Assembly (NCBI RefSeq): GCF_004765795.1
Contig: NZ_SBIV01000014.1
Span: 1 to 38,796 of the forward strand
Direction of reading: 5' to 3'
Origin: Halorussus marinus
GTDB taxonomy: Archaea; Halobacteriota; Halobacteria; Halobacteriales; Haladaptataceae
Length of the DNA stretch: 38,796 bases
Positions 9,056-31,986 of the stretch are shown here, one piece after another. Position numbers and translations under genes: made by a program. Every line of letters starts with the position of its first letter. Position 1 is the first letter of the stretch. The notes below the pieces were generated by a model. It ran no database searches, was not told the origin of the DNA, and saw only the letters and a program-made list of their open reading frames with translations.

Positions 9056-9103
9056 TGTTTATTGTGCCCCCGAGTGGGTGCGGGGCGGTTCCTGTGCTGC
9101 CCC
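9056..9103 (+). promoter_or_regulatory. Conserved-loop hairpin leader H1
   Basis: TGTTTATTG, GCCCC(CG), loop AGTGGGTG, CGGGGC; the 3' arm can instead pair with downstream CTGCCCC. ATG at 9112. Confidence 0.7.
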
Positions 9104-9111
9104 TGATTTGT

Positions 9112-9402
9112 ATGTCTGGTCCGGATAGATACGACGATACGGCAGACGATCACGAACGGTTCGAAGCGGAATTGCTCGCTCAGGATCGGGATGCGCGGTC
9201 ACCATCGACGGCGGATCTTGACGACGAGACGGCCCGCCAGCTGGTTCGAGAGCTACTCGATGCCGGGACAGTCACACCGGTCGTCGACCAGCGGCTCCTC
9301 GTTCACGAGCCCAGCAACACAGCGTTCGAATCGATGCAGCAGCTCGCCGTCTTCCACACAGGCTGGACGGCCGCCCGGGACGCCGGCGAGGGTGATGGGT
9401 GA
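9112..9402 (+). CDS. Hypothetical protein
   Basis: Acidic ORF from ATG 9112 (MSGPDRYDD...); TGATG-coupled to the next gene. Confidence 0.7.
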   Translation: MSGPDRYDDTADDHERFEAELLAQDRDARSPSTADLDDETARQLVRELLDAGTVTPVVDQRLLVHEPSNTAFESMQQLAVFHTGWTAARDAGEGDG

Positions 9403-9728
9403 TGCAGCAGACGCTGGCCGGCTGTGCCTTCTGCGAGGCTCCATCCGGGATAGAGACTGGGATCGCCTACACGTGGGGGAAGGAAGAGCGGGTCAACCAC
9501 CCGATTTGCGTCGACTGTGCGATCCAAGAGACGCCGGATCCCGATGATCGTGATCACTACGCCTGTGACAGCTGTGGCCTCGTCGTCAACGCGCTCGCAG
9601 CGCTCACACGGTTTCGAATCGAACTCGGCCATCTCGAAGGCCCGATACAGGTCTGTGCGCGGTGTAGTCCAGGCGGGCCAGCAACGTACTGGACACGCGA
9701 CCTCGAGGCACACATCGTCTCTGACTGA
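9402..9728 (+). CDS. Small Zn-finger protein (four CxxC)
   Basis: CAFC, CVDC, CDSC, CARC; start overlaps the upstream stop. Confidence 0.8.
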   Translation: MQQTLAGCAFCEAPSGIETGIAYTWGKEERVNHPICVDCAIQETPDPDDRDHYACDSCGLVVNALAALTRFRIELGHLEGPIQVCARCSPGGPATYWTRDLEAHIVSD

Positions 9729-9884
9729 CCCGCCGAGCGGTCGTCGACGCGAGTGGTACGGCGACCACTGCGGGAGGGTCACAGTTGTCCGTAGCTGTCC
9801 CACCCCGCGAACTCAGCAGCGCTGGTTGTGTCGCTGTCTCGTTGCTCCGCTATCTTCAACAGACGGGCGCTCCTCGGGATGACT

Positions 9885-10235
9885 ATGGACTGCCCCGCGT
9901 GCGGGTCCCCCGTCACCCTCGAGGTCGGACCAGACCGGCCCCTGTCGACGTCGCTGTCCGACGCCGTCCTCGCAGCGGAAGAGGACGAGCAGATCGAGGT
10001 GACCCGCGATTGTTGGGACTGTGGCTGGCACGAAACGCGGGCGCTTCGCGTCGCATCGATCGACAGGACCGCCGGCGACGAGACTGCCGTCGAGCGAGCC
10101 GCACTCATCGACGAGATTGCCGATGAGCTCGCAGCGATCGGCTGTGTGGGTACGCTTGAGGAGACGCTGGCTGCAATCCGTGAGCAACGAGAAACCGACT
10201 CGGCGACGACCGATACGGACGACGCGGCGGAGTGA
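9885..10235 (+). CDS. Zn-ribbon hypothetical protein
   Basis: MDCPACG and CWDCGW, acidic helical tail; alternative start at 9879. Confidence 0.75.
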   Translation: MDCPACGSPVTLEVGPDRPLSTSLSDAVLAAEEDEQIEVTRDCWDCGWHETRALRVASIDRTAGDETAVERAALIDEIADELAAIGCVGTLEETLAAIREQRETDSATTDTDDAAE

Positions 10236-10241
10236 CTCGCA

Positions 10242-10571
10242 ATGCCTGATACAGAGGCCAACTATAATGTTCGTGAGCAAACCGGGAATCCCGAGCACGC
10301 ATCGGTCGACGATGTGGTTGACCTCGTGATCTACCGGGCGCAGAACCCGCGAACCGAGCACGAGGATGCACATTTCGATACGGCGGTCGCGGCTCTCGTC
10401 GACAGATACGGAACGGAGTCGGTCCGGACAGTCATCAACCGCATCCTCGTCGACGACGAGCCGTTCCGGACCGCCACGAACGGCCTTGAGATGCGCAACG
10501 TCGACGGCGTTCGGATCGGAACCGCAGCCAGCTGGTTTCTCGAGGAGCTAAACGCACAGGACGACCACTGA
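10242..10571 (+). CDS. Hypothetical protein
   Basis: 109-aa acidic ORF starting 6 nt after the previous stop. Confidence 0.7.
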   Translation: MPDTEANYNVREQTGNPEHASVDDVVDLVIYRAQNPRTEHEDAHFDTAVAALVDRYGTESVRTVINRILVDDEPFRTATNGLEMRNVDGVRIGTAASWFLEELNAQDDH

Positions 10572-10655
10572 GGGACCGGTTGAAAGGCCGCAGCGACAGG
10601 CCGTCGAGCCCCCATTTTTAACTCCTGTTCGTCCTATCTACCCGTCGAGGCCATA

Positions 10656-11227: not shown

Positions 11228-11500
11228 CCAGCGGGAAAGCGCGGGGGGTTGCGCGGCGTGGCTGCTCACCCCCCACGCTTTCTCCGCTGGCCGCTCGCTC
11301 CGGGCGGGTCGGCGCGCGGTGCTGGTTGGGGTCGCCGCACTCGGGCGCGCTCTCGCTCGCGCCCGGTAGGGCGCTCGCGAAGGCGCGAGCGAGAGCGCGC
11401 AGTCGGTGCTATCGGTCGTCGACGTCGTCGGAAAACCGCGATGTTAGGGGCATCGCGGTGGCGGCGCACGAGCGCCTTCAGTGGTATCTGGAGGATACCA
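11228..11500 (+). other. Stack of long hairpins upstream of the RPA-like gene, including leader H2
   Basis: Stem 11228-11290; perfect 19-bp IR 11345-11363/11382-11400; ACCGCGATG-TTAGGGG-CATCGCGGT 11435-11459; TGGTATC/GATACCA stem overlapping GGAGG just before the ATG. Confidence 0.75.
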
Positions 11501-13930: not shown

Positions 13931-13935
13931 CAACG

Positions 13936-14685: not shown

Positions 14686-14839
14686 ATGCTCCCCCTCTCA
14701 CCTTAGATAAATATGTATTCGGTCCCCTGTTGTGGCCTTGAGTGCCGCCCCAGTTCCTGCATAGCCAGTTCATTGGTATAAGAATCAGACTCGGTCGCTG
14801 TACGCCATCGGTTCCGAGATATCTGAACCGTCTTGTAGA

Positions 14840-14890
14840 GGTTTATTCCACCCATAATGGGTGAAGGATTCGCTGTACTGGCGAGTTCCT
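14840..14890 (+). promoter_or_regulatory. Leader H3 (divergent family member) upstream of tfb
   Basis: GGTTTATT, CACCCA-TAA-TGGGTG, then a second hairpin AGGATTCGCT/GGCGAGTTCCT. Confidence 0.45.
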
Positions 14891-14906
14891 GAACATGGTG
14901 AGAACG

Positions 14907-15827
14907 ATGACTACCAGAGACATCTACGAAACTGGCTTCGACGAAGACGTCCAAACAGAGTCGAGCGCTACCCAGTGTCCAGAGTGTGACGGCCGGGTCA
15001 CTACGAATGCGGTCGAAACGATCTGCGAGGACTGTGGACTTGTTATCGAGGAACAACGTATCGATCACGGGCCGGAGTGGCGGGCGTACGATGCAGACGA
15101 GCGCGAGCGAACAGGCGCACCACTCACTACAGCCCGTCACGATCGAGGCATCTCGACCGAGATCGGCCACGGAACCGACGCACACGGGAACGAACTCTCT
15201 GGTCAGAAACGCCGGCAGCTGGCCCGGATGCGACGTGAGCAGACCCGTGGTCGCTGGCGGTCCAAAGCGGAACGGAATCTCGCACACGGGTTGGGCGAGG
15301 TACGCCGGCTGGCGAGTGCGCTCGAGCTCTCTGAGTCGATTCGTGACCAGGCGTGCCAGCTCTTCCGGAGCGCTCAGAGCGAGGATCTGCTTCGAGGCAG
15401 ATCCATCGAAGCCATCGGTGCAGCGAGTATCTACGGTACCTGTCGATGTAACCAACACCCGCTTCTCCTCGAGGATGTCGTCGACGCCGCCCGAGTCGAG
15501 TCCGCTCGTGTCACCAACGCCTACCGAACACTGAATCGCGAATTAGAGCTCCCAGCACCACCAATGCGCCCGACGTCGTTCATTCCACGCCTGATCTCGG
15601 CGCTGGAGTTAGACCACGACATTCGTCGGCGCGCGAACGAACTCGCAGAACGCGCCGAGGGGACAACCCTCACGAACGGCTGTCAGCCATCGGGCGTCGC
15701 GGCCGCCTGTGTCTATCTGGCTGCCCAAGAGCAGGGCGCGTTGATTACCCAATCCACCGTCGCGTCGGCAGCAGAGGTGTCAGTCGTGACGCTCCGAAGC
15801 CGGCGAGACGAACTCCAAGCGATCTGA
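14907..15827 (+). CDS. tfb: Transcription initiation factor IIB paralogue
   Basis: Zn ribbon CPEC...CEDCGLV, IDHGPEWRAY, two cyclin repeats (LLRGRSIE; PSGVAAACVY); GGTGA SD before ATG 14907. Confidence 0.95.
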   Translation: MTTRDIYETGFDEDVQTESSATQCPECDGRVTTNAVETICEDCGLVIEEQRIDHGPEWRAYDADERERTGAPLTTARHDRGISTEIGHGTDAHGNELSGQKRRQLARMRREQTRGRWRSKAERNLAHGLGEVRRLASALELSESIRDQACQLFRSAQSEDLLRGRSIEAIGAASIYGTCRCNQHPLLLEDVVDAARVESARVTNAYRTLNRELELPAPPMRPTSFIPRLISALELDHDIRRRANELAERAEGTTLTNGCQPSGVAAACVYLAAQEQGALITQSTVASAAEVSVVTLRSRRDELQAI

Positions 15828-16972: not shown

Positions 16973-17030
16973 CTCACCGTTTAACCAACAGTCTCCGATG
17001 GAGATGGCTTCTGTTGGTTAACACGGTGAG
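16973..17030. repeat. Inverted repeat TTAACCAACA-N21-TGTTGGTTAA, copy 1 (extended to 19 bp)
   Basis: CTCACCGT-TTAACCAACAG ... CTGTTGGTTAA-C-ACGGTGAG. Confidence 0.8.
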
Positions 17031-17050
17031 TACCCGCAAGTCCGACGTCA

Positions 17051-17214
17051 GTCATAGCGGGCGTTCATTCGGCAGGTTCGCAGCGGCCTGTCTCTACAAA
17101 GCGGGGCGGGAACAGGGGGTGTGGGTAACGCACCGTGACATCGCCAAGTCCGGAAACGTCACGCCGACCACGGCCTGGACGCATCACCAGAGGTTCGATG
17201 AACTCGCTGTCTAG
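17051..17214 (+). pseudogene. tfb: Frameshifted C-terminal fragment of a second TFB
   Basis: VIAGVHSAG / FAAACLYKAGREQGVWVTHRDIAK...VTPTT aligns with PSGVAAACVYLAAQEQGALITQSTVA...VSVVT of the intact TFB; frame change near 17076; no 5' part. Confidence 0.75.
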
Positions 17215-17699
17215 ACGGGCCAGGTAGGGAGCGAGGGCGCTCCATTCTTCCAGTGGATCGCATCTAGCGCGGGCGGGAACTGCTGTAGTCGGTCATCGAG
17301 GACGGCGAGTGGGTGCGCATCGAGAAACGTCGCCTTGTGCCGATCAACCGGCGTGTCTTCGTGATTGAGTTGGATATGACAGGGCCCAAGGTCCGGATGG
17401 TCGGCATCTTGGTGGAATCCGAGCATCAGATTTCGGTCCGGTTCGACCCAGTTTATGCGGTAGTATTCGTGGTCGACGCCGGCGGGGTACCAGAAGCGAA
17501 TCTCCAGTCGTGCTGTCGCCGCGTCGTACGAGTCACTCAGGAACGTCGTCGGATCGACACCCGCGATGACGTACCGGGGTCGGCGTCGAGACGGGCGATA
17601 GCGGACCTCTTCACACCCTGGCTGGTTCGTCAATCGGTCGTGAACGTCGCGGAGGAGGGTCCGCTGTGTATAGCGGTCGCGACCGGCAAGAAAGATCAT
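17211..17699 (-). CDS. Putative toxin/partner of a haloarchaeal wHTH two-gene module
   Basis: 162 aa, co-oriented downstream of the wHTH gene; YRINW...GFHQD..HP..GPCH motif, reminiscent of TumE-like proteins. Confidence 0.6.
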   Translation of the reverse strand: MIFLAGRDRYTQRTLLRDVHDRLTNQPGCEEVRYRPSRRRPRYVIAGVDPTTFLSDSYDAATARLEIRFWYPAGVDHEYYRINWVEPDRNLMLGFHQDADHPDLGPCHIQLNHEDTPVDRHKATFLDAHPLAVLDDRLQQFPPALDAIHWKNGAPSLPTWPV

Positions 17700-18268: not shown

Positions 18269-18403
18269 GGTTGGCACCTCTTGGGACAGTGTTCGCGCCC
18301 TACTCCCATATATGTTTGTACTGTCTCGCATAATCAAGAATGCCTTGCGGGCGAAGGCGTCCGGACGTTGAAATGCGATACCGACAGAAGGTATGGCCAA
18401 CCG

Positions 18404-18575
18404 ATGTACGACCGATATTCTGACGTTGAGGAACTACGGCCGACCGGCGAGGCATCCCACAGCCCGGACACAATGTTGGACGACGGGTGTGAGAGTGACC
18501 TCCTGGCGGCAACGCGTCGCGACGAGCACTGGTGGCGACCTGATGCGACGACGACAGTCACGTGGAGTGTCTATC
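18404..18575 (+). pseudogene. Degenerate N-terminal paralogue of the 16091-16960 Zn-finger gene
   Basis: EELRPTGEA vs EAFQPVGEG; after a frameshift RQRVATSTGG vs RQREASHSGG; ECLS vs SCVS. Confidence 0.55.
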
Positions 18576-18603
18576 CGCGCCGGCGAGTGGTGAGGCGCTA
18601 CCG

Positions 18604-18792: not shown

Positions 18793-18830
18793 TCGTCATC
18801 GCCGTCGACGCCAGGGGCACTTCCAGTGTC

Positions 18831-18868
18831 GGTTTATCGCCCCCCAAGAGGGGTGCGGGGCTTCCCGC
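18831..18868 (+). promoter_or_regulatory. Conserved-loop hairpin leader H4
   Basis: GGTTTATC, GCCCC, AGAGGGGTG (18847-18855), GGGGC; alternative stem GCGGG/CCCGC. Confidence 0.75.
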
Positions 18869-18878
18869 GAGTCCAGAC

Positions 18879-19259
18879 ATGGCGACACTACAAGCTGCGA
18901 CGACGTCAACCGGCGCGATCGTATCGGATCCACAGGCTGTCCGCGAACTCTGTGAGAGCTACTGCTTCGGGACGCTCGACTGGGAGGTCACCGACAAGGG
19001 CGAACTCACCATCTGGGGGTACGATGACTTCGAAGTGTACGAGGCGCGGGAGAACGGCCTCCCGGACTACGAGGGCGGCATCGTGACCCACGAATTCTTG
19101 CGAGAACTTGCCGACCACCTCGAAGCTGACGAGGAACTCGACATCCAGACAGCGGGGTTCACGAAGTGTCGCTTCCCAGTGCTGGCGAAGCGGTACGTCG
19201 TTCGCGACGGCGAAGTCCTCTACGCGGATCTCAGTTCCCCCGAACCAATCGAGGAGTAG
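18879..19259 (+). CDS. Hypothetical protein
   Basis: 126-aa acidic ORF with typical haloarchaeal codon usage. Confidence 0.8.
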   Translation: MATLQAATTSTGAIVSDPQAVRELCESYCFGTLDWEVTDKGELTIWGYDDFEVYEARENGLPDYEGGIVTHEFLRELADHLEADEELDIQTAGFTKCRFPVLAKRYVVRDGEVLYADLSSPEPIEE

Positions 19260-19260
19260 C

Positions 19261-19311
19261 GTTGTTCGTCCCCCGAGAGGGGTGCGGGGCGATCCAGTAG
19301 CGGTCGCCCCG
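19261..19311 (+). promoter_or_regulatory. Conserved-loop hairpin leader H5
   Basis: GTTGTT, CGTCCCCCG, AGAGGGGTG (19276-19284), CGGGGCG; alternative stem CGGGGCGATC/GGTCGCCCCG abutting the GAGGTGA SD. Confidence 0.8.
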
Positions 19312-19326
19312 TGAGGTGATTGCTCG

Positions 19327-21122: not shown

Positions 21123-21129
21123 CACCGCG

Positions 21130-21145
21130 GTTGGAATATTCCAAC
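21130..21145. promoter_or_regulatory. Perfect 16-bp palindrome, likely operator for the metal ATPase
   Basis: GTTGGAATATTCCAAC directly before AAAGACATAT, 37-52 nt upstream of ATG 21182. Confidence 0.7.
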
Positions 21146-21181
21146 AAAGACATATCGAACTCCCGCTCCTACCGTGAGGTG

Positions 21182-23545: not shown

Positions 23546-23617
23546 CTCTGCGGCGGGAAGTGCGGGCAGGACGCTCCTCTTTCGCGACTTTCCTGCGCTC
23601 TATCGAGACAATTTGCA

Positions 23618-23658
23618 GTTTGTCTGGGGCAGTAGAGACTGAGCCCCACCGCAGGCTC
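23618..23658 (+). promoter_or_regulatory. Leader H6 (divergent loop)
   Basis: GTTTGTCT, GGGGC, AGAGACTG, GCCCC; alternative stem GAGCC/GGCTC; ends CTGATTTG-ATG like H1. Confidence 0.5.
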
Positions 23659-23665
23659 TGATTTG

Positions 23666-24088
23666 ATGCCCGAGAATCCAGACGACGATCCACTCCACGA
23701 TTGCGAGTTAAGTCCCGACGCAGTCCTCGGGACGCGCACCTTCCACGATGTCCTGTTCACTGACGATACCGAGACGCCGGTAAACGTGCTCACCGGCGAG
23801 ACACCCGCACATTCGCAGGCGACCGTCGAGGAAGCGAAGGCGTTCGCTACGAGTATCGATACGGACACACCACAAATCGCGCTCCCGGCCTCTGTCGAGA
23901 CGCAGATCGAAACCCAGAGCCAACCCTACACGGCGGCCGCGTTCTTCCACTTCAAGGCGACCGGGTCGCTCGAACTGCACCGTGCCTACCACGCCGCCTA
24001 CGACTCCGACGCGTTCAGCACCGACTTCGAGGCCGACTACGAGTCGGGCGACCTGACGATCACCGTCGAGCAGACTGCCGATTCCTGA
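23666..24088 (+). CDS. Hypothetical protein
   Basis: 140-aa acidic ORF. Confidence 0.75.
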   Translation: MPENPDDDPLHDCELSPDAVLGTRTFHDVLFTDDTETPVNVLTGETPAHSQATVEEAKAFATSIDTDTPQIALPASVETQIETQSQPYTAAAFFHFKATGSLELHRAYHAAYDSDAFSTDFEADYESGDLTITVEQTADS

Positions 24089-24107
24089 ACGCGGTCTCCC
24101 GAAGCGA

Positions 24108-24181
24108 GGTTTTTCGAGCGCCGGCGATGGGTGCCGGCGCACCGAGCAGACAGCGCCGAGCGGCGCCCGGTGAGTCGGCAC
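24108..24181 (+). promoter_or_regulatory. Conserved-loop hairpin leader H7
   Basis: GGTTTTTC, GCGCCGGC-GATGGGT-GCCGGCGC; alternative stem 24131-24144 with 24168-24181, followed by the GAGGTGA SD. Confidence 0.8.
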
Positions 24182-24196
24182 TCCGAGGTGAACCAG

Positions 24197-24697
24197 ATGC
24201 ATATGGTCATCTACGCGCTGGTGGAAGCACCGACACAGCACGACGCCCTGGTCGAGGGGAAAGCAGTCTTCGACCGTCTCGTCGGCGCGAATCCCCACGG
24301 CTGCGCCGTGTTTGATTACTACGTCACGTTCGATGAAGACGACACGACGGTCGCCGGGAAGGCCCGCTGGGGTGACCTGCCGACGGCGGCCCCCATCAAC
24401 TCAGAGGAGGGCGGTGAACTGCTCGACCGGGCTTGGAAGGCCACGAAAGAGGAGTTTCAGCGGAATCTCGACCGCGTGAAGGAGGCGCTCGACGAGCTCA
24501 GCGACGAGGCGATCATGCGCGACGAGGACCTCGCCCGCCACGCGTTCCACCAGGTCGGCGCGTACGAAGGGCCCTCAATCCCGATGTACGACCAGCACGC
24601 CCAGGGGATTCGGCATCGAGGCCAGCTCGACCGAGTCCTCGAGGAAGACGAGGACAGCCAGACGCTCTGGATCGTCCCCGCAGACGTTCATTTCTGA
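24197..24697 (+). CDS. Hypothetical protein
   Basis: MHMVIYALVE...FDYY...WIVPADVHF; GAGGTGA SD. Confidence 0.8.
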   Translation: MHMVIYALVEAPTQHDALVEGKAVFDRLVGANPHGCAVFDYYVTFDEDDTTVAGKARWGDLPTAAPINSEEGGELLDRAWKATKEEFQRNLDRVKEALDELSDEAIMRDEDLARHAFHQVGAYEGPSIPMYDQHAQGIRHRGQLDRVLEEDEDSQTLWIVPADVHF

Positions 24698-24703
24698 CCA
24701 ACG

Positions 24704-25069
24704 ATGCCACGAATCACCAACTGGTCACGAGAGAGTCGCTCACCAACACTCGCGTATCGAAACACCGAGACTGGAGCGCGAGCTGTTCTACACCGGGCGC
24801 CGGATTCATACCGGTACAAGTGGCGCGGAGCGATCCTCGTCGACGGCTACCCGATCTGGTCGCGAGGCTTCGAGACGAAGGAGGCGACAACGTTCCGGGA
24901 TGCGCTTCGGGAGCGGCCAGCGCCCGAACTGAACTGTCCGGAGTGTCCAAACGACGACGTCCTCGTCGGTGAGAAGACAGCTGATGGAGCGACGGTACAG
25001 CGCTGGTACGACTGTCCGGACTGTGGGTACGAAGCCCCCTCGCGCATCGTCTACGGCCCTGAACGCTGA
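24704..25069 (+). CDS. Hypothetical protein with C-terminal Zn ribbon
   Basis: CPEC...CPDCG. Confidence 0.8.
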   Translation: MPRITNWSRESRSPTLAYRNTETGARAVLHRAPDSYRYKWRGAILVDGYPIWSRGFETKEATTFRDALRERPAPELNCPECPNDDVLVGEKTADGATVQRWYDCPDCGYEAPSRIVYGPER

Positions 25070-25085
25070 GGACGTACACACGCAG

Positions 25086-25132
25086 GGTGTTTTTCGGCCG
25101 GGGCGGAGAGAGTGACCCGGTCGAACCGGGTC
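25086..25132 (+). promoter_or_regulatory. Conserved-loop hairpin leader H8
   Basis: GGTGTTTT, TTCGGCCGGG, loop containing AGAGAGTG, CCCGGTCGAA; alternative stem GACCCGGT/ACCGGGTC. Confidence 0.7.
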
Positions 25133-25141
25133 GGTCCAACA

Positions 25142-25537
25142 ATGAGTCTCGAAGTACTCGACCGACACAGCGAGGCACTGTTCGAGTTCCTCTGGTGTCC
25201 CGTCTGCGGGCAGGAAGTGTTCACCCACATTCCCTTCGAGGGAGTGTTCTGCAAGAACTGTAACACGCAGGTCGTCCTCCAAGAGTCTCGAGAAGACCGT
25301 GGCTACGAGGAGGCTGTGCTCGCGTGCTTCGACACCGACTCAACGTGGAACCTTCACGTCGACGAGAAGCTCCGCCGCGACCTGCCTGACGGCTCGGCAC
25401 GGGCAAAAATCCTCGGTGCACCGGGTGCCTATGAGATCGACTGGTGGAGTCCAGCACCTGGGGAGGATTGGGAGCCGGTCGAGCGTGGTGAATTCGACGA
25501 CGTGGAGGAACCAGACGAGGTGTCACATCTCGCGTAG
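25142..25537 (+). CDS. Zn-ribbon hypothetical protein
   Basis: WCPVCG...FCKNC; ATG 25142. Confidence 0.8.
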   Translation: MSLEVLDRHSEALFEFLWCPVCGQEVFTHIPFEGVFCKNCNTQVVLQESREDRGYEEAVLACFDTDSTWNLHVDEKLRRDLPDGSARAKILGAPGAYEIDWWSPAPGEDWEPVERGEFDDVEEPDEVSHLA

Positions 25538-25564
25538 CGGATTGCAATCCCGCTACGACTGTGT

Positions 25565-25611
25565 GGTGTTGTTTCAGCGCCGGCGATGGGTGCCGGCGCA
25601 CACGCGCCGGC
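25565..25611 (+). promoter_or_regulatory. Conserved-loop hairpin leader H9
   Basis: GGTGTTGTTTC, GCGCCGGC-GATGGGT-GCCGGCGC-ACAC-GCGCCGGC; 26 bp identical to H7. Confidence 0.8.
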
Positions 25612-25619
25612 GAGTACCG

Positions 25620-26204
25620 ATGTCGACACGGAGCCAACTCCGATTCGTCCAACGAGTCGAACAGACCGGTGAGACAGATGGCAGCGCCGACCGCGTCGCG
25701 CAGGTGTACCGGCATTCGGACGGGTATCCCGGGAGCGTCCTCCGGGATCTCGCACAACTGAAAGAGCTGCTCGATGCGACCCGCGCAGAGCGTGGCCCGG
25801 GCTACACGGCGGCGACCTTCGTGTTCCTCGACAAGCTCTCGACGGTCGACCTCTACCTGGATGGCGACCCAGAGCGAACGATCGACGCGGCTCAGCCAGC
25901 GGATCTCCTCGAGCCGTCCAATATGGAGCACCTGGACCAGCCGCTGTTCCTGCTGGGCCACGGCGTCGAGAATCCGGCCGACGGCATCCACGGCGACGAG
26001 GAGTACCTCTACGTCGTCGAACTCCCGACGGAGAACCCGTTCGACGAGCCGACCGAGTGGACAGTCAAAGTGAGCGGTCACTCCGCGTTCCCCCGCTGGG
26101 ACGGCCCGACCGACGAGGCCTTCGAGCAGGCGAGCTGGCAGTTCCACGGGTCGCTCGAGGACGCGCTCGCAGAACTGGTCCGGGACGAAGCAGTCGTCAA
26201 GTAA
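25620..26204 (+). CDS. Hypothetical protein with YxHxDGYP motif
   Basis: MSTRSQLRF...VYRHSDGYP...HGDEEYLYVV, a pattern I associate with phage/plasmid proteins. Confidence 0.75.
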   Translation: MSTRSQLRFVQRVEQTGETDGSADRVAQVYRHSDGYPGSVLRDLAQLKELLDATRAERGPGYTAATFVFLDKLSTVDLYLDGDPERTIDAAQPADLLEPSNMEHLDQPLFLLGHGVENPADGIHGDEEYLYVVELPTENPFDEPTEWTVKVSGHSAFPRWDGPTDEAFEQASWQFHGSLEDALAELVRDEAVVK

Positions 26205-26248
26205 AATCCCAAATCGTATTTATACAGTTAGGGTTTAGAAAGACCCAG

Positions 26249-27199
26249 ATGATTTCGAAGGCCGGACTCGCCGTGCTTGACGCGCTGAGTACCGGCCGTG
26301 AAGCAACACCGGCGGAACTCGCGGCCGAAACCGGATATTCACGAGACCATCTGTACGACGTACTCAACGAATTGCTCGCAGCGGGATTGCTCACAGAAAC
26401 CCGTGGGTCCAGCAATCAGCGTCGTGTCCGCATCGCGGAACATCCAGTTACCGAAGCGTATCGAACGCTGCAGTCGGAGTTCAGCCACGTAGACTGGACG
26501 GAACTGCTCTCCCCAGCCACACTCCGCGTGTGTTGGTATCTCGATAGACCACGACACATCGCTGATATCGCAGACCGGCTCGGAATCACTCGACAAGGTG
26601 TCCACAGCGCGTTATCACCGCTCAAGCACCGAGCACTACTCTCCAGATCTGATTCGAAGTACGCCCTTCATGACGAAGTCTCGCCGCTGTTGGCGTTCGC
26701 CCGGGCTACTGTAGAGCACGAACATCGAGCCCGAGTCCGGGAAATCGCTCCCAGTGCCACGATCGCGTGGTGCGATCCGAAGCGAGCACTCGTTCGCCTG
26801 CAGACCGACGAGGATACGGACGCACTCCAAGCAGCTCCGGACTGGGAGATGACCGGACTGGGTCGGTTTACAGCGTATGGTCTACAGTTTTTCCTCGCCG
26901 GCGAGCCTCCGTTCTGGTATGCTCCGGACGAAGACCTAACGCCTGCTGAAGTCGTATGCCATACGCTCCTTCTGGATAGCGGATCTAGGCGGGTCAGCTA
27001 TTCGATGCTGCTGATCGAGGCGGAGGATATCGATCAGGAGACACTCGTCGAGACCGCACAGTGGTACGACCTGGAACCCACTGTGAAAGCGTTGTATCGG
27101 CCACTTCAGGGCGACTTCGACAGAACAGATGATCTGCCAGTCATCCTCCCAAAAAAGAACGAATATATGGCACTCAAAGACCAGTACGGAGTCGCGTAA
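26249..27199 (+). CDS. Double-HTH (MarR/ArsR-like) regulator
   Basis: Two wHTH repeats (TPAELAAETGYSRDHLY; IADIADRLGITRQGVH); TTTATA at 26219-26224, leaderless. Confidence 0.8.
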   Translation: MISKAGLAVLDALSTGREATPAELAAETGYSRDHLYDVLNELLAAGLLTETRGSSNQRRVRIAEHPVTEAYRTLQSEFSHVDWTELLSPATLRVCWYLDRPRHIADIADRLGITRQGVHSALSPLKHRALLSRSDSKYALHDEVSPLLAFARATVEHEHRARVREIAPSATIAWCDPKRALVRLQTDEDTDALQAAPDWEMTGLGRFTAYGLQFFLAGEPPFWYAPDEDLTPAEVVCHTLLLDSGSRRVSYSMLLIEAEDIDQETLVETAQWYDLEPTVKALYRPLQGDFDRTDDLPVILPKKNEYMALKDQYGVA

Positions 27200-27235
27200 C
27201 ACCAACCACGCAGTCTGGCGGAAAATTGCGATGGG

Positions 27236-28600
27236 TTAGATGATGCCGCCGATCACGAGTAGTCCGACGACGAGCAGCAGCGTCGCAACCACGCTCCCTC
27301 CAGCAAGCAGCTTGTTCTCCATCGCCTTCTCGTGGAGGGGCATCTCGGCGTACTCCTTGCGGAACGCGTCGAGGTTCTCCTCGTCGTAGAAGTACTTCCT
27401 CTTCAGCGCGAACCGTTCGGTCACCGCACAGCCGGTACAGACCGGCTCCCCTTCGAGCCGTTCGGTCTTGATGTGGGTGTCGCAGGCGATCGCCCCGCAG
27501 TTCGGACAGTAGGTGTACGTCTCGTCAACGCCGCTCGTCTCGCAGTGGACGCACCGATGGATGCCGTCCTCCAGAGTGACCCGTGAGGGGCCAGCAGAAT
27601 AGTATTCGTACGGATACGAGTACTCCAGTATCTCTGTCGTCTGCCGAACCTCAGGTAGATACACCGGCTCAATCGATTGCACTGAGATGTCCGAGAGATT
27701 CGGCTCACACGTCTTGTTGTACGTGACGTTATTGTCGCCGGTGTAGGTCACCGTCGTCGTGTGGTAATCCTGGAGGCGGTCAACAGCCCACTCCTTGTAC
27801 TCCGTTTGGGTCTGGCCGAACCGTCGTTCGTCGACGTCGTCGAATACCTCGGTAAACTGCCCGGTATCGAGGGGAACCGTCGCGTGGAAATTCTCGGTGA
27901 CCAGCGTCGCGACTTCGTCGTCGGCCACCTTCGGATGGCCGCGCTCAGCGTGGACAACGAACTGTGTGCGGTCGTTGATCCGGTGGATGACACCGACGGA
28001 GGTCTCAAAGACAGCGTTCGTGTCGGCGGTGATCGCAACCACCGGTCGGAACGTCACTTGCGAGTGCGGCACCGGCAGATCCGCAGCCTCGATGTTCTCG
28101 ATGTCGCGGAACGCCTCCTGGACAGGTGCGTCGACATCCGCCGCCGGGTCGTACGGCCGGAGCGTCTCGTCACAGAGGATCTCGATGCGGCCGTTGTAGA
28201 GATCGAGACCGATCTCGTCGGCGATCTCCCGGAGGTCCTCGCCGTCGATCAGCTCGATGGGAAAGGGATCATCGTTCCGCTGGAGCCGATCTGCGTACTC
28301 CTCGGCAGGGTTCGTAAATCGACCAGTGGTGGCGACCATCCCGCGCTTTGGACCGTCGAAGTCGAAGGTCGCGATGGCGGAATGGAGCTTCTGGACGACC
28401 GGCCGGCCGACCGTCCCGGTGTGCTTACACTCGACGATGATCGCACGCCGGGTGCCGTCGACGACCTCCTCCATGATGACGTCCCGTCCCTCGTCGGCCG
28501 TCCGCTCGGCCTGGCGGACGTTCTCGTAGCCGAGGTTGCGGAAGACGTCCTCCATCAAGTCCTCGAACTCGAATCCCGAGAGGTCGTCCAGTACAGCCAT
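27236..28600 (-). CDS. Mrr-family restriction endonuclease with Zn ribbons and C-terminal membrane helix
   Basis: LSGFEFEDLM..F..LGY...TADEGRD...VECKH...GMVATTGRFT; CVHC/CPNC/CDTH/CTGC; hydrophobic tail; start ATG 28600. Confidence 0.85.
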   Translation of the reverse strand: MAVLDDLSGFEFEDLMEDVFRNLGYENVRQAERTADEGRDVIMEEVVDGTRRAIIVECKHTGTVGRPVVQKLHSAIATFDFDGPKRGMVATTGRFTNPAEEYADRLQRNDDPFPIELIDGEDLREIADEIGLDLYNGRIEILCDETLRPYDPAADVDAPVQEAFRDIENIEAADLPVPHSQVTFRPVVAITADTNAVFETSVGVIHRINDRTQFVVHAERGHPKVADDEVATLVTENFHATVPLDTGQFTEVFDDVDERRFGQTQTEYKEWAVDRLQDYHTTTVTYTGDNNVTYNKTCEPNLSDISVQSIEPVYLPEVRQTTEILEYSYPYEYYSAGPSRVTLEDGIHRCVHCETSGVDETYTYCPNCGAIACDTHIKTERLEGEPVCTGCAVTERFALKRKYFYDEENLDAFRKEYAEMPLHEKAMENKLLAGGSVVATLLLVVGLLVIGGII

Positions 28601-28680
28601 CCGAATGTAATTGGATAGTATCTTGCTATAACTAAATACGTTGCCGACGGTGGCGACGAAGTCCCGACGACGTGAGCGCT

Positions 28681-28729
28681 GGTGTTGTTGTTCGTCCCGC
28701 AAGGGGCGCGGGACGACACATTCGTCCCG
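28681..28729 (+). promoter_or_regulatory. Conserved-loop hairpin leader H10
   Basis: GGTGTTGTTG, TCGTCCCGC-AAGGGGC-GCGGGACGA, then a second TCGTCCCG at 28722-28729. Confidence 0.8.
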
Positions 28730-28737
28730 GGTTACCG

Positions 28738-29184
28738 ATGAGTTCTGAGAGCAACAGCGAGATCGCTCCCGACAACTGGTGGTTGCAACGCCGAACAGAA
28801 GACGACCATTTCGTGTTCGCCTACGAGTTCTCGAAATCCGTCCTCTGCCACGTCCAGCAATCCTCGGACTGGCTGGTCCGGGTCGATCGAGCCGATGGGA
28901 CGATCCTCTTCAGCCAGCACGACCTCCGGTCCCGAGAGGCAGCATTCGCGCTCGCCGAGAGCGTCATGGAGCTCTGTACACTGCTCCATCGGGAGGTCGT
29001 CACGGAGCGGAGCCAAGCGCGAAAGCCGATGTACGTCGGGTCCCGACCAACCGGGACCGCGAGTGCGAGCAATCAGGAAGCCGGACGCGGTCCAGACACC
29101 GCCCGTCGACCGTTGGACTCCCGTCCCCGTCAGCCCCTAGAACGACCACGAGGTATGGGTCACTGGGAGGGTGGGTTTCGATGA
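28738..29184 (+). CDS. Hypothetical protein
   Basis: ATG 28738; ATGA-coupled to the next gene. Confidence 0.65.
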   Translation: MSSESNSEIAPDNWWLQRRTEDDHFVFAYEFSKSVLCHVQQSSDWLVRVDRADGTILFSQHDLRSREAAFALAESVMELCTLLHREVVTERSQARKPMYVGSRPTGTASASNQEAGRGPDTARRPLDSRPRQPLERPRGMGHWEGGFR

Positions 29185-29735
29185 CCGGCGGCCGAGCGTA
29201 CCGCGGTGAACGCTGTATGGGTGGACAGCTGGTGTACACGCCCGATGGCGACGTGCTGGACAAGCACCTCCACGTCCTACGCCGCGCCCCTGGCGGGTTC
29301 GACTGGGGACCACAGGCTGACGAGGCCCGCATCGATCAACTCGCGATCGCGCTGCTGGCCGATTCAGCGACGAAGAACATCGCGCTCGACCACTACAAGG
29401 AATTCGCGCGGTACCTGCGTGAACAGCTCGAGGGCGACGAGTGGCGACTCCCGACCAGCGACATTTCGGCCGATACCTGGTCGCGAGACATCGACGTGGC
29501 TGATGAGACGCCCTCACCGGAGGACGTCGACATCACGGCAGTCGATTTCGACGAGATGACCTTCGCGGTCGAGCGAGCGCTCTGCGAGAAACACGACATT
29601 AGCATCCACCAGAGCGTCGACGACCGCCGCGAGGAACTGGAAGACGCCCGCCAGGCAGTCCAATCAGAAACTACCGACTCGGAGGAGTCACAGACCGACA
29701 CCGGCGGGTTCGAGTTCCCCGCAGCTAGCCAGTAG
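29181..29735 (+). CDS. Divergent DUF6166-like protein
   Basis: RRAPGGFDWG...DQLAIALLAD aligns with NHSPTGFEWG...AQLACGLLLD of the next gene. Confidence 0.7.
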   Translation: MTGGRAYRGERCMGGQLVYTPDGDVLDKHLHVLRRAPGGFDWGPQADEARIDQLAIALLADSATKNIALDHYKEFARYLREQLEGDEWRLPTSDISADTWSRDIDVADETPSPEDVDITAVDFDEMTFAVERALCEKHDISIHQSVDDRREELEDARQAVQSETTDSEESQTDTGGFEFPAASQ

Positions 29736-29759
29736 GGACGGTGAGGGCGTTTCCGGCTC

Positions 29760-29805
29760 TGTTTGTAGAACCCCCGAGAGGGGTGCGGGGGTCACCACTC
29801 CCGCA
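29760..29805 (+). promoter_or_regulatory. Conserved-loop hairpin leader H11
   Basis: TGTTTGT, ACCCCCG-AGAGGGGTG-CGGGGGT; alternative stem TGCGGGGG/CTCCCGCA; 20 bp identical to H5. Confidence 0.85.
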
Positions 29806-29813
29806 ACGTACCG

Positions 29814-30500
29814 ATGAACGGGAACGCCCGACGCACCACGTCGAACGTAGTCCAGACAGAAGCGCTCGCTAACCGTCGCGACGACTCCGTCGAATACGTC
29901 GGCTTTCGCATCGACGGCCAGGCCGTCGTTCTGAATCTCTCCGAACACCAGCGTCTCACCCCGGATCGAAGTCTCGATCTGGTCAACCACAGCCCGACAG
30001 GCTTCGAGTGGGGATACGCTGGAAGCGGGCCCGCACAGCTCGCCTGTGGGCTCCTCCTCGACTACTACAACGACGCCCAGATCGCGAGAGAACACTACAT
30101 TGGGTTCCGGAATTGCGTGATCAGCCAGCTCGAGTGTGACGGCCCGGCGGCGTGCTGGCACCTCACCGGCGAAGAAATCGACGCGGCGATGGCGACGATC
30201 GCCGACGACGTCGTCGCCCTTCCCGACGGCGGGGGGCCGTCACCGACACTCCCCGAGAACTGGCGAACGGTCACTCGCCCTGACCGGCGAGTCTTCCAGC
30301 GGGCTGATCGCGACCACTACATCGTGCTTGGGGAGGGAACCGACGGCTGGCTGGCCGTCCTCTGTAATCAGGGCGATCGCGCCTATCCGGCACCCCTGGC
30401 GAGCCGGACGGTTTCGGACGATGCCGATGTCGAGCAGGCCATCCGGGCCCTGGTCGACGAGAGCAACAACCTCATCGAGCCACCGGAGGGGGAGTGCTGA
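29814..30500 (+). CDS. DUF6166-like protein
   Basis: NHSPTGFEWGYAGSGPAQLA motif (family name recalled). Confidence 0.8.
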   Translation: MNGNARRTTSNVVQTEALANRRDDSVEYVGFRIDGQAVVLNLSEHQRLTPDRSLDLVNHSPTGFEWGYAGSGPAQLACGLLLDYYNDAQIAREHYIGFRNCVISQLECDGPAACWHLTGEEIDAAMATIADDVVALPDGGGPSPTLPENWRTVTRPDRRVFQRADRDHYIVLGEGTDGWLAVLCNQGDRAYPAPLASRTVSDDADVEQAIRALVDESNNLIEPPEGEC

Positions 30501-30631
30501 TGGAGACAATTCGGCTGTTACGAGCCACCCACCAGCTGCTCGAACGCGGGGTCGAGGCGCTCGAGAAAATCGGTCGCGAACTGGAGCGGTACAACGACTG
30601 GCAAGAGCAGACTGACGGCACCGACTCGTGA
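30500..30631 (+). CDS. 43-aa helical small protein (not in the ORF track)
   Basis: METIRLLRATHQLLERGVEALEKIGRELERYNDWQEQTDGTDS; TGATG overlap upstream, GTGA overlap downstream, GGAGG SD. Confidence 0.7.
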   Translation: METIRLLRATHQLLERGVEALEKIGRELERYNDWQEQTDGTDS

Positions 30632-31293
30632 CTCAGACACGTTCTCCCGGCCAGCGGCGGAGTACCGGGTTCCAGTACACGCGCACTCCCGAGGGGTGCT
30701 CGTGTCCCATTCATCGCGACGGCCAGCCGGTCACGGCGCCGCTCGGCCTGCGGTTCGCAGAGCGCGTCCATATCGAATCGATCCCACGGCACGTCGCCGG
30801 CGCGATCTACGAAGCCCATCATTCCTATATGGACAGTGTCCCGCGGACGAACCTCGTTCATCACGGGCTCTGTTACCAGGACCAGCTACTGGGTGCGATT
30901 ACGTGGCGCTATCCACTGATTCGCTCGCTGGACTACGACGGCACGCGATACGAGGGTGACGAGATCGTCGAGGCAGCACGGATCTGCATCGGCGTCGACT
31001 TCCCGAATCTCGCCTCCGCCGCCCTCGCCCGGTCGATGGAACGATTCGTGCGTCGGCACGGTCGGCGGCGAGGCGTTCGCCTTCTGCTGACGTTCGTGCG
31101 AGCTGACTTCGACGGCTCGATGATTAAAGCGCTCAGAGACAAGGGCTGGCACTGCGCCGGGAAAACGGAACCCGGACAGGCAGGTAACCGGCCCGACAAG
31201 CAAATCCGAGAGCGGCCGAAGTGGCGGTTCCTCTGTGAAGTTCCTGATGAGTCTGAGCGGGAACAGTCCTCACTCGGACGGTGGGCTCCGTGA
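30628..31293 (+). CDS. Mom-like GNAT-fold DNA modification protein
   Basis: HHSYM...HGL...LLGAI...EAARICI...PNLASAALARS...LLLTF...GSMIKA...GW follows the Mu Mom/XF1762-like layout (HY, ELxR, PxNxES, SFAD, GxxYxAxxW/F). Confidence 0.6.
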   Translation: MTQTRSPGQRRSTGFQYTRTPEGCSCPIHRDGQPVTAPLGLRFAERVHIESIPRHVAGAIYEAHHSYMDSVPRTNLVHHGLCYQDQLLGAITWRYPLIRSLDYDGTRYEGDEIVEAARICIGVDFPNLASAALARSMERFVRRHGRRRGVRLLLTFVRADFDGSMIKALRDKGWHCAGKTEPGQAGNRPDKQIRERPKWRFLCEVPDESEREQSSLGRWAP

Positions 31294-31832
31294 CTACGAA
31301 TGCTCGTCTCGATGAGTTTGCAGCAGAGGAAGACTCGGACAACCAGCCGGAGCGCGATCCATCTGTAGTCGAGCGACTGTTGGACCCGATATCACCGGCC
31401 CAGGGGCTGCGACTCATCCCCGGCCAAGGTGACCCGGTGTACCTCCAAAACAGGGGAACTGAACGCTACCTGTTCCGGGATGCCCACGAGCGGTGGTTCA
31501 TCCTCCAGCCCTCGGCCAAGGAGTCGGTCGACGACTTCGTTCGCTGGGTGTATCTCCCCGACGGCAAACCCGCCGAGATTGCCCGGACAGCGATCCGTCA
31601 ACGGACGGTTCGCGGCTACCGGTACGTTCAGCGAAGCGGAGCTCCCGAGCCGGTTGGGACGACGGTGACAGCGATGTACGTCAGTGAGCCCTGGCCCGAC
31701 GATGTCTACGAGTGTGGATCCTGCGGAGCCGAGTTCGAGTCGCCCCATGCTCACGCCCTTCACTGCTGGGAGGACCATCCCTGGGTTCCGAACCCGGAGC
31801 AGGTTCGGCTACGCCGCTCCAGCACCGAGTAA
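31290..31832 (+). CDS. Hypothetical protein with C-terminal C2H2-like Zn finger
   Basis: YECGSCGAEFES....LHCWEDH; GTGA overlap with the upstream stop. Confidence 0.75.
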   Translation: MTTNARLDEFAAEEDSDNQPERDPSVVERLLDPISPAQGLRLIPGQGDPVYLQNRGTERYLFRDAHERWFILQPSAKESVDDFVRWVYLPDGKPAEIARTAIRQRTVRGYRYVQRSGAPEPVGTTVTAMYVSEPWPDDVYECGSCGAEFESPHAHALHCWEDHPWVPNPEQVRLRRSSTE

Positions 31833-31865
31833 CGACAGTGCGACAGTTTCCCGACGGTGGTTCGA

Positions 31866-31906
31866 TTAACCAACAGACAGCCGCTTCCTAGGTTAGTGTT
31901 GGTTAA
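31866..31906. repeat. Inverted repeat TTAACCAACA-N21-TGTTGGTTAA, copy 2
   Basis: Arms 31866-31875 and 31897-31906; same 21-nt spacing as copy 1 but a different spacer sequence. Confidence 0.8.
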
Positions 31907-31909
31907 CGT

Positions 31910-31986
31910 GGTGTTGTTGTTGCGCCCGGCAGAGGGGCGCAGGGCGCGAGACGATGCAGGCAGCCGTCGATGAGCGTTCCTGCGTC
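31910..31986 (+). promoter_or_regulatory. Conserved-loop hairpin leader H12
   Basis: GGTGTTGTTGTT, GCGCCC, AGAGGGGCG, GGGCGC; alternative stem 31936-31947 with 31974-31986, directly followed by the GAGGTGA SD. Confidence 0.8.

Follow-up and report, generated by a model that had tools for sequence, protein, structure and literature searches.

A candidate RNA leader family with two alternative hairpins and a conserved loop precedes genes of conjugation-type haloarchaeal plasmids

Analysis of a 38,796-nt stretch of Halorussus marinus DNA (contig NZ_SBIV01000014.1, positions 1 to 38,796; hereafter the window) reveals a repeated leader element in front of about a dozen genes of a same-strand block, made up of a T tract, a small hairpin with a near-invariant loop (hairpin 1) and, in most copies, a second hairpin close to the start codon that competes with the first (hairpin 2). 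We read this element as a transcribed cis-acting leader or intercistronic RNA switch that is read by a factor, and assign this reading a probability of about 0.55; that the element acts as RNA, whatever the mechanism, is probable. A preliminary description of the same DNA had grouped twelve hairpins with variable stems and a conserved loop into one family, acting either as an RNA leader or as folded single-stranded DNA (ssDNA), and the analysis below extends, corrects and in part replaces that proposal.

The anatomy of the element was resolved with a matrix of 58 copies anchored on the invariant G of a G-Y-G triplet (position 0). Each unit opens with a K-TTKTT tract, followed after 2-3 nt by hairpin 1, a variable GC stem enclosing the loop RAGGGGYG, and the spacing from T tract to loop is fixed. 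Positions -21 to -16 read K T T K T T, positions -12 to -8 form a C-rich 5' arm, positions -5 to +2 read R A G G G G Y G, and positions +5 to +7 lie in a G-rich 3' arm; G occupies position 0 in 58/58 copies, Y position +1 in 58/58 and G position +2 in 56/58. Positions -75 to -22 show no conservation in the same matrix, which rules out a promoter at a fixed distance upstream of the T tract. The variable stems around a conserved loop that had been proposed from the window were borne out, with stem pairs that covary and a loop that hardly changes. In an alignment that was fitted to the model and counts orthologues repeatedly, 79.8% of cells are paired compared with 56.3% in shuffles (a value reached by 0/500 shuffles), and with the same caveats the covariation score of hairpin 1 is 0.486 versus 0.149 for shuffles and 0.055-0.126 for slid partners. 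A permutation test over 50 distinct cores, in which partners were swapped between unrelated copies, gave a mean helix score of 6.27 against a null of 4.38 (null maximum 4.93). The excess of G-T pairs that had also been claimed did not hold for hairpin 1, where it is not significant (9 vs 7; 18 vs 8 in a second count).

Three further structural candidates were considered for this part of the element and set aside. For a pseudoknot that would pair the U tract with the loop's purine half, reading through the copies revealed no covariation. The loop as a Shine-Dalgarno mimic was rejected because, although GGGGUG can pair with the anti-Shine-Dalgarno sequence, 20/58 copies carry GGGGCG and some 30 nt separate the loop from the AUG. 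A 'hairpin 0', consisting of a C run, a GNRA-like tetraloop and a G run, is possible in 46/50 cores (with a GNRA loop in 14) and appears in several minimum-energy folds; amounting to 3-4 bp in GC-rich sequence, it was not counted as shown.

Downstream of the loop, the copies contain a third arm that the preliminary description had not noted: the 5' arm of hairpin 1 recurs downstream of its 3' arm. The 3' arm can therefore pair upstream, forming hairpin 1, or downstream, forming hairpin 2, and the two states are mutually exclusive. Hairpin 2 is found in about 70% of copies, mostly beginning at the Y-G of the loop, and the permutation test over 50 distinct cores gave it a score of 6.7 versus a null of 4.6 (null maximum 5.06), with scores of at least 7 in 46% of copies versus 4% of the null. 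Both helices are selected. Wobble-type mismatches in 42 hairpin 2 helices comprise 24 G·T versus 3 A·C; inspection identified at least 13 independent helices with an internal G·T and showed most of the A·C cases to be register artefacts. Among 25 distinct orthologues of the leader of the DUF6735 gene, compared by eye, most substitutions in the stem of hairpin 2 are C-to-U or A-to-G, which keeps a wobble pair, and roughly four break a pair. Six copies keep a hairpin 2 of 7-10 bp across a loop of 24-35 nt. This pattern in hairpin 2 is the signature of a folded sense strand. In RNA folding the hairpin-2 state was more stable than the hairpin-1 state in 48/57 folds, with the proviso that the hairpin-2 folds used a longer downstream stretch, which favours hairpin 2; such an order of stability would be predicted for a hairpin 1 that depends on a ligand.

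The placement of these helices is tied to the start codon. Hairpin 2 ends 7-9 nt before the AUG in 27/42 copies and 13-20 nt before it in another 12/42, the latter with AGGTGA or GAGGTGA directly after the helix, and among copies lacking hairpin 2 the AUG follows hairpin 1 by 4-7 nt in 5/14. The spacer between hairpin 2 and the AUG often ends in TACCG-ATG or CTACC-ATG (genes 25620, 28738 and 29814 of the window; HVO_A0448 and HVO_A0139 of the Haloferax volcanii plasmid pHV4), which looks like a conserved start context.

The membership of the family was examined site by site. All twelve hairpins of the preliminary description are present at their positions in the sequence, and eleven of them belong to the family, that at 14840 as a divergent copy; the twelfth, at 11435, is not a member, having no T tract and a TTAGGGG loop, with loops that are not conserved among its orthologues. 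Ten of the twelve align nearly gap-free from the T tract through the 3' arm, and the register is thus fixed. The covariance model was built from ten of these sites and finds those ten by construction. An independent position matrix was derived from 38 instances on other plasmids, with zero window sequence. This structure-free matrix scores at least 14.4 at ten sites on the + strand of the window (9056, 14839, 18568, 18831, 19260, 24109, 25568, 28684, 29761 and 31915), and on the - strand just one site reaches a score of 8 or more, at 8.3. The units at 23615 and 25086 have longer loops and are missed by the ungapped matrix; orthologues of both were found by the model in other plasmids. An additional member, absent from the preliminary description, lies at 18566-18602 in front of a 62-aa gene at 18604. 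The earlier observation that the hairpins lie on the sense strand extends beyond the window, with 51/52 model matches in three other plasmids located on the gene-sense strand shortly upstream of annotated starts.

Plain GC hairpins are common in this DNA (187 with a stem of at least 6 in the window); the composite motif is rare. A scan combining the matrix with a stem gave 10 matches on the window contig, 24 on contig C7 (217 kb, plasmid-like) and 3 in the remaining 3.51 Mb of the genome, and each of 20 Markov resamples of both contigs yielded 0-1 matches, which settles in the affirmative whether the motif exceeds its frequency in randomised sequence. With the covariance model, 22/24 matches in the same genome fell on the window contig and C7 (150 of 4804 first-look candidates scored), including 12 further copies on C7, and a score gap separates 16.5 from 12.4 bits. 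A loose regular-expression scan proved too permissive, giving about 25 matches per 10 kb on the chromosome, and the covariance model and matrix were used instead. Contig C7 carries a second, diverged copy of the whole module in the same genome (for example 88-108 kb on the - strand and 156-164 kb on the + strand; loci L002 and L003), and its DUF6735 leader is 89% identical to that of the window.

The excluded hairpin at 11435 (ACCGCGATG/CATCGCGGT) stands before an SSB-like gene and keeps its stem, not its loop, in two other plasmids. Upstream of it lies a conserved run of GC palindromes (11342-11391), and after it, directly before the ATG, a small hairpin carries GGAGG in its loop (11482-11500). 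The region 11340-11500 is an element distinct from the leader family.

Evidence that the element is transcribed comes from published differential RNA sequencing of two model species, namely the unfiltered TSSAR table for Halobacterium salinarum NRC-1 (PMC6161675) and Table S1 for H. volcanii (PMC4983044). Statements on start sites here and below refer to the portions of these tables that were available, which for pHV4 comprise 13,075-142,710 in full and further positions queried singly. In 5/5 mappable copies the start site lies upstream of the motif, by 12-113 nt, and none lies where a TATA box in the T tract would predict. For tfbE on plasmid pNRC200 of NRC-1, transcription starts at 308505(-) (p 7.6e-14), placing the motif (308392-308354) within a 183-nt 5' untranslated region (UTR), and the table holds no (-) start site between 308181 and 308505. 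A second pNRC200 copy has start sites at 317263 (p 1.7e-7) and 317387 (p 1.6e-12), 12 and 136 nt upstream, with none between 315066 and 317263; the start site of a third, at 306557 and 17 nt before the motif, is weak (p 0.08), and the stretch from there to 306156 holds no other. Consecutive table identifiers thus give no start site inside or downstream of the motif at any of the three pNRC200 copies examined. On pHV4, HVO_A0448, which encodes a TFB, starts at 455003 with the motif inside a 155-nt UTR, and HVO_A0139 starts at 136196(-) with the motif inside a 137-nt UTR. The TFB orthologues of pNRC200 and pHV4 therefore both carry the motif within mapped 5' UTRs, and orthologues of the divergent TFB leader unit at 14838 score 12.8-23 bits in the model. 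At a weak pHV4 match at 25757, internal start sites of the upstream gene lie 158-180 nt upstream. The 70-nt upstream column of the H. volcanii table, as far as it was available, was also searched for the loop words and contained no copy of the motif.

Side by side with these start sites, pHV4 shows initiation in the opposite direction. A strong antisense start site (coverage 312) is located at 30319 on the - strand, some 60 nt away from the T tract of the silent leader unit at 30380, and the reverse complements of the leaders at 110390 and 139080 are likewise read out from divergent start sites.

Several points count against reading the element as a factor-operated RNA leader. None of 25 pHV4 matches between 13 and 143 kb has a sense start site in the motif or at most 40 nt downstream, and 1/25 has a gene-assigned start site at most 200 nt upstream, the block being mostly silent. 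For this reason the RNA reading leans on five copies in two species; two of the five belong to the TFB gene, one start site is weak (p 0.08) and none comes from the strain of the window. Orthologous copies are not independent, and all counts overstate the support accordingly. Hairpin 1 taken by itself shows no G·U bias (9 vs 7), and the G·T tolerance of hairpin 2 would be compatible with a + strand that folds as ssDNA too. Finally, the TTKTT tract fits the TTWT promoter core in most copies, at a fixed spacing to the loop.

This last point leads to a plasmid-specific core promoter, in which the T tract would be the TATA box, the loop GG would fall at -10/-11, the GC palindrome would cover -23 to +1 and transcripts would begin immediately beyond the 3' arm, with a plasmid TFB reading the promoter like an alternative sigma factor. 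The haloarchaeal TATA core has been described as TTWT centred at -27/-28 (PMC2151090), within a canonical promoter of B recognition element (BRE) CGAAA, TTWT and WW at -10/-11 (PMC2151090, PMC4983044). The leader resembles such a promoter in its TTKTT and in having a second conserved block at fixed spacing, and the GG found where canonical promoters have WW would be a plausible specificity determinant. A complete TFB belongs to the core genes of the plasmid family. The units behind divergent genes (9054 and 28684) have no other obvious TATA within 60 nt; in 9/51 copies the AUG lies 0-3 nt past the motif, for a TATA-to-AUG distance of 32-35 nt like that of the cargo promoters at 12593 and 16091; and the silence of the block in H. 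volcanii under standard growth is what might be seen if its own factor were needed. The start sites speak otherwise. The tfbE gene is transcribed, yet all three pNRC200 copies are without a start site at or after the motif, and both pHV4 genes with assigned start sites also start upstream of it. Replacements in the T tract are most commonly G (14/58 at the central position, with A in 6), the flank at positions -27 to -22 is G/T-rich and not BRE CGAAA, and the would-be -10/-11 positions are G in 46 and 58 of 58 copies in place of WW. An RNA that starts past the 3' arm cannot form hairpin 2, the helix with the strongest selection and the G·U signature, and plasmid pHS1 of Hbt. salinarum R1 keeps ten copies although its record holds no intact plasmid-type TFB. 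In light of the hairpin 2 signature and the mapped start sites, the promoter was demoted to a rival that we regard as quite improbable. A variant with the start site at the invariant Y-G, which would make hairpin 2 5'-terminal, was also rejected: the T tract would lie near -20 and not at -27/-28, and the available NRC-1 and H. volcanii tables contain no such site.

Promoters for the block can be located elsewhere. The tfbE start site on pNRC200 lies within the spacer of a palindrome, GTTTTAACCAACA...TGTTGGTTAAG, which is the TTAACCAACA palindrome of the window and whose left arm gives a TTTTAA box near -27. Matches to this palindrome number 6 versus 0.6 expected, and it also precedes several units in other plasmids. 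The copy at 31866..31906 is a probable promoter-operator supplying the transcript that carries the leader at 31913, and the palindrome is probably a promoter-operator for a DNA-binding regulator of the block; the block thus has ordinary, operator-bearing promoters. Inspection of upstream sequences agreed with the earlier claim that leader genes have no TATA of their own, whereas cargo genes (12593, 26249, 16091) do, which fits promoters that lie elsewhere, such as the TTAACCAACA palindromes. For the majority of leader units, located 60-110 nt behind co-directional genes, an intercistronic position is the best reading. A variant of the palindrome occurs near 37714-37742. Between the palindrome at 16981 and the leader at 18566 lie two - strand genes (17211-17699 and 17717-18268), and in other plasmids (for example L007, 9580-9705) palindrome and leader are about 48 nt apart; the segment 17030-18540 looks like an insertion that split a promoter from its operon, and plasmid pNG600 of Haloarcula marismortui shares it. 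An annotated 200-nt TFB-like fragment is found at 17014-17214.

The G·T tolerance and the gene context bring in the other half of the preliminary proposal, in which the hairpins would be ssDNA signals of a conjugative leading region. They would fold in single strands during transfer or replication and act either as priming sites (ssi-like) or as places where early expression enters the ssDNA (Frpo-like). The block holds conjugation-like genes on one strand (T4 coupling protein, SSB-like OB-fold, ArdC-like and Mom-like proteins), some relatives are typed MPF_T, the motif is strand-specific and confined to the block, and DNA hairpins tolerate G·T as well. With Frpo/ssi systems the leaders have in common repeated one-strand hairpins in a same-orientation block with ssb- and ardC-like genes, and a hairpin flanked by single-stranded DNA is what plasmid primases, RepB' of RSF1010 among them, recognise. 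The differences lie in how the leaders are built and placed. Their stems of 5-10 bp with an unpaired T tract rebuild no promoter boxes and no double-stranded TATA, they are coupled to start codons, and a hairpin 2 set at a fixed 7-9 nt before the AUG, or abutting a Shine-Dalgarno sequence, would be pointless for a priming signal. A helix of 7-10 bp over a 24-35 nt loop is unlikely to hold on SSB-coated DNA, the region is transcribed as a 5' UTR at the mapped copies, and copies persist in plasmid fragments, with no transfer genes in the stretch of about 36 kb of pHS1 that was examined, and some copies lie on megabase contigs. We therefore hold the ssDNA signal to be very unlikely. Of the two alternatives originally offered, the RNA leader was favoured by the tolerance of hairpin 2 for G·U and not A·C and by its position relative to AUG or Shine-Dalgarno sequence, together with the upstream start sites, and ssDNA gained only the conjugation-like gene context.

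Passive punctuation, with no dedicated factor, would account for the U tract in another way: the tract would terminate the upstream gene, and the role of the hairpins would be to stabilise the downstream message, to insulate it, or to mark where an RNase cuts polycistronic RNA down to short-leader mRNAs. A penta-U is a described haloarchaeal termination motif (PMC2151090) and matches the U tract, which often begins 3-40 nt from the upstream stop codon. Hairpin 2 is stable and sits at the 5' side of each cistron, and cleavage at its 3' base would produce leaders of 7-9 nt, near the class of leaderless transcripts that dominate in haloarchaea (PMC4983044). Against this, the loop (58/58, 58/58 and 56/58) and its spacing to the U tract are kept across at least 33 genera while the stems change, which points to specific recognition, and the U tract is kept behind divergent genes, where there is nothing to terminate. 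The available part of the unfiltered tables of PMC8303175 gave no processing site at 3083xx of pNRC200, the one locus checked. Punctuation of this kind is, in our assessment, unlikely.

Returning to the factor-operated leader, the following working model can be outlined. The element would lie in the 5' UTR of first genes and between the cistrons of long same-strand operons on conjugation-type haloarchaeal megaplasmids, with hairpin 2 as its ground state inside the ribosome landing zone. A sequence-specific factor, encoded by plasmid or host (for example a U-binding Lsm), would clamp the U tract and the hairpin-1 loop, and the bound factor would keep the 3' arm from hairpin 2, which would alter translation initiation and possibly mRNA stability. 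Between 10 and 19 genes per plasmid would be controlled at once, with hairpin 2 either occluding the start region or positioning the ribosome. We infer from these data that a trans factor exists, that the leaders switch and at which level control is exerted, and the conservation of U tract and loop suggests a single trans factor. Lsm, which binds U tracts beside hairpins, is a candidate for it, and in their sequence pattern of a single-stranded U-rich tract plus a stem-loop the leaders match an Sm/Lsm site.

A G/U-rich single strand, a hairpin with a conserved loop and a stronger competing hairpin together make up the architecture of protein-operated leader switches. The closest likeness is to the ribonucleic antiterminator (RAT)/terminator leaders of the BglG-SacY-LicT type and to trp-like attenuators, which likewise have two overlapping, exclusive hairpins, the 5' one weaker and with conserved unpaired bases and the 3' one a stable ground state; one recognition element also serves many genes. 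The haloarchaeal leaders differ in that hairpin 2 is no terminator, being followed by a 7-9 nt A/C-rich spacer and the AUG, or by GGUGA, and not by a U run, in that the U tract lies upstream of the hairpins, and in that the host is an archaeon. A Pfam scan of 28 window proteins found no PRD or CAT antiterminator domain. The lambda nut site combines a linear boxA with the boxB hairpin, and Sm sites are U tracts beside stem-loops that are bound by Sm/Lsm rings. With both, the leaders have in common a linear element at a fixed distance from a small hairpin whose loop and not stem is conserved, or a U-rich strand beside a hairpin; they differ in recurring before 10-19 genes per replicon, and we know of no N-like or Nus context for them. 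To our knowledge, protein-dependent leader switches are essentially undescribed in archaea.

The family is widespread among the Halobacteria. Model matches at E of at most 0.01, from a quick calibration that makes the E-values rough, were found in 78/151 sampled species genomes and 33/57 genera, often with 4-16 per replicon, and some lie on megabase contigs. In five whole plasmids the matches are confined to one block of 35-45 kb on one strand, as illustrated by pNG600 (14/15 matches on the + strand, 93-128 kb) and pBOL4-2 (16/16 on one strand). The model counts 37 copies on pHV4 of H. volcanii and 6 on pNRC200 of Hbt. salinarum NRC-1, with others on pHS1 and pHS2 of Hbt. salinarum and on pHM100 of Haloferax mediterranei. 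On pHS1 of strain R1, ten leader copies lie in a 9-kb remnant of the module (L008, 17960-26258), and copies also occur on pHS2; on the pHS1 record the plasmid-type TFB is not intact and is represented only by a fragment of 40% identity that contains a stop codon.

Searches for an earlier account of the motif were negative. Rfam 15 gave 0 matches at gathering score over the whole window, and at E of at most 1 over 18700-32100 only an unrelated Cis90 sRNA on the opposite strand (19.7 bits versus a cut-off of 50). In the accessible main text of PMC13532300, the study of the corresponding plasmid family, the words 'promoter' and 'hairpin' are absent and the leader motif is undescribed. Two 2026 preprints surveying prokaryotic noncoding elements mention neither Halobacteria, Haloferax nor the motif, and full-text literature searches returned no description of it. 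The leader family is a new RNA family of a known general type, the cis-regulatory leader with alternative hairpins, and its regulon-like repetition is unusual for archaea.

The replicon that carries these leaders is of a wide-ranging kind. Positions 18000-32500 of the window are 98.1% identical to pNG600 and match 177 haloarchaeal plasmid records from many genera. According to the annotation of pNG600 and three relatives and a Pfam scan, the same-strand gene block lies behind the type-IV coupling protein at 108-4508 and contains an SSB-like OB-fold protein, TFB, DUF6735, DUF6166, a Mom-like protein and many small unknowns, with ArdC-like and DUF6610 proteins further on; some relatives of the plasmid are typed MPF_T by MOB-suite. 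In the part of PMC13532300 (Microbiol Spectr 2026) that was accessible, a family of 133 pHdsl9-3-related plasmids across Halobacteriales is described, with a core of Orc1/Cdc6, SSB, TFIIB, ArdC-like, VirB4/VirD4 and XerA, and the plasmid of the window belongs to this same replicon family. The features of the window are collected in Table 1.

Table 1. Leader units and associated features of the window (nt positions of the 38,796-nt stretch; hairpin columns give 5' arm/3' arm)
Feature	Position	Strand	Hairpin 1	Hairpin 2	Model (bits)	Matrix score	Remarks
T4 coupling protein	108-4508						T4SS-DNA_transf, HerA and TraG-D_C domains (Pfam scan)
Leader unit before gene 9112	9054..9111	+	9065-9070/9082-9087	9082-9089/9096-9103	31.7	26.1	T tract TGTTTATTG; 8 nt to ATG
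Divergent leader unit before plasmid TFB gene	14838..14906	+				14.4	T tract GGTTTATTC; CACCCAT/ATGGGTG palindrome; GGTGA Shine-Dalgarno 5 nt before ATG at 14907
Plasmid TFB	14907-15827	+					Complete; Zn ribbon and two cyclin repeats; core gene of plasmid family
Second TTAACCAACA palindrome copy	16981..17021	.					In other plasmids ~48 nt upstream of leader of the 62-aa gene heading the block
Weak leader unit	18566..18603	+	18577-18581/18594-18598		12.0	17.3	T tract GTGTCTATCC; loop ..GAGTGGTGA; stem, then 5 nt to ATG at 18604
Leader unit before 18879	18829..18878	+	18839-18843/18857-18861	GCGGG-gctt-CCCGC, ~18855-18868	35.2		Loop ccAAGAGGGGTGc
Leader unit before DUF6735 gene	19258..19326	+	19266-19272/19286-19292	19283-19293/19303-19313	39.1		T tract begins 3 nt past upstream stop codon; hairpin 2 abuts AGGTGAT Shine-Dalgarno; ATG 19327
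Leader unit before 23666	23615..23665	+	23625-23630/23643-23648		20.7		Variant loop AGTAGAGACTGA
Leader unit before 24197	24107..24196	+	24118-24126/24132-24140	24129-24138/24174-24183 (long-range)	34.2		Hairpin 2 abuts GAGGTGA Shine-Dalgarno
Leader unit before 25142	25086..25141	+	25093-25102/25116-25125	25113-25121/25125-25133	25.4		Loop GCGGAGAGAGTGA; 8 nt to ATG
Leader unit before 25620	25566..25619	+	25577-25585/25591-25599	25591-25599/25604-25612	36.0		7 nt to ATG
Leader unit before 28738	28684..28737	+	28692-28699/28709-28716	28709-28716/28722-28729	32.8		Follows divergent restriction-endonuclease gene; 8 nt to ATG
Leader unit before DUF6166 gene	29759..29813	+	29770-29776/29786-29792	29784-29792/29797-29805	33.0		Loop AGAGGGGTG; 8 nt to ATG
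Palindrome TTAACCAACA-N21-TGTTGGTTAA	31866..31906	.					6 nt before unit 31913
Leader unit before 31954	31913..31953	+	31920-31927/31942-31949		27.4		6 nt downstream of the palindrome (probable promoter-operator)

Some further observations concern the replicon itself. The coupling protein (1466 aa) has a poxvirus D5-like domain at residues 1374-1448 (20.8 bits, slightly below the Pfam cut-off), a C-terminal match that hints at a fused primase/helicase-type module. The coordinate offset between the window and pNG600 shifts by 472 bp at about 31826-31913 (pNG600 L001, 25827-26386), where about 470 bp of pNG600, including an annotated 390-nt gene, are missing from the window. Four public runs compared with the window were low-depth mixed contigs and yielded no transcript starts or ends. 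Contigs from two of these runs connect 28602 directly with 29759, and those from one run connect 26180 with 27238; from these joins whole gene units at 28602-29759 and 26180-27238 are missing or replaced in relatives. On its right side the first join falls precisely on the opening base of the 29759 leader unit, and on its left, at 28602, it is some 80 nt upstream of the 28684 unit; such unit-sized differences between relatives may have arisen by recombination between leader repeats. An arrangement of integron-like cassettes with attC sites was rejected, as K-TTKTT-S occurs on the 5' side only, with no inverse core site (RYYYAAC...GTTRRRY) on the 3' side.

Two bolder extensions follow from the leader reading. 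In the first, a tentative and on balance doubtful one, the leaders would form a plasmid-wide post-transcriptional regulon in which one RNA-binding factor reads the U tract and the GGGGYG loop and flips 10-19 leaders per plasmid from hairpin 2 to hairpin 1, jointly switching on the translation of establishment-type genes (among them SSB, ArdC, Mom-like and DUF6166/DUF6735), for instance on entry into a new host. Such a regulon, if real, would give archaea an RNA-level parallel to the early expression of leading regions during bacterial conjugation. In the second, a hairpin 2 placed exactly 7-9 nt from AUGs without a Shine-Dalgarno sequence would be a structural stand-in for the helix between Shine-Dalgarno and anti-Shine-Dalgarno sequences, which, if true, would explain how haloarchaeal ribosomes start on internal cistrons that lack one. 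A novel mechanism has been called for in initiation without a Shine-Dalgarno sequence (PMC2151090), and the 7-9 nt placement bears on such initiation on leadered and internal haloarchaeal cistrons.

The leaders would be among very few candidate protein-operated leader switches in archaea, and they may offer a shared means of controlling haloarchaeal megaplasmids of the conjugation type, which are little understood. With copies present in tractable model strains, these hypotheses are testable at the bench.

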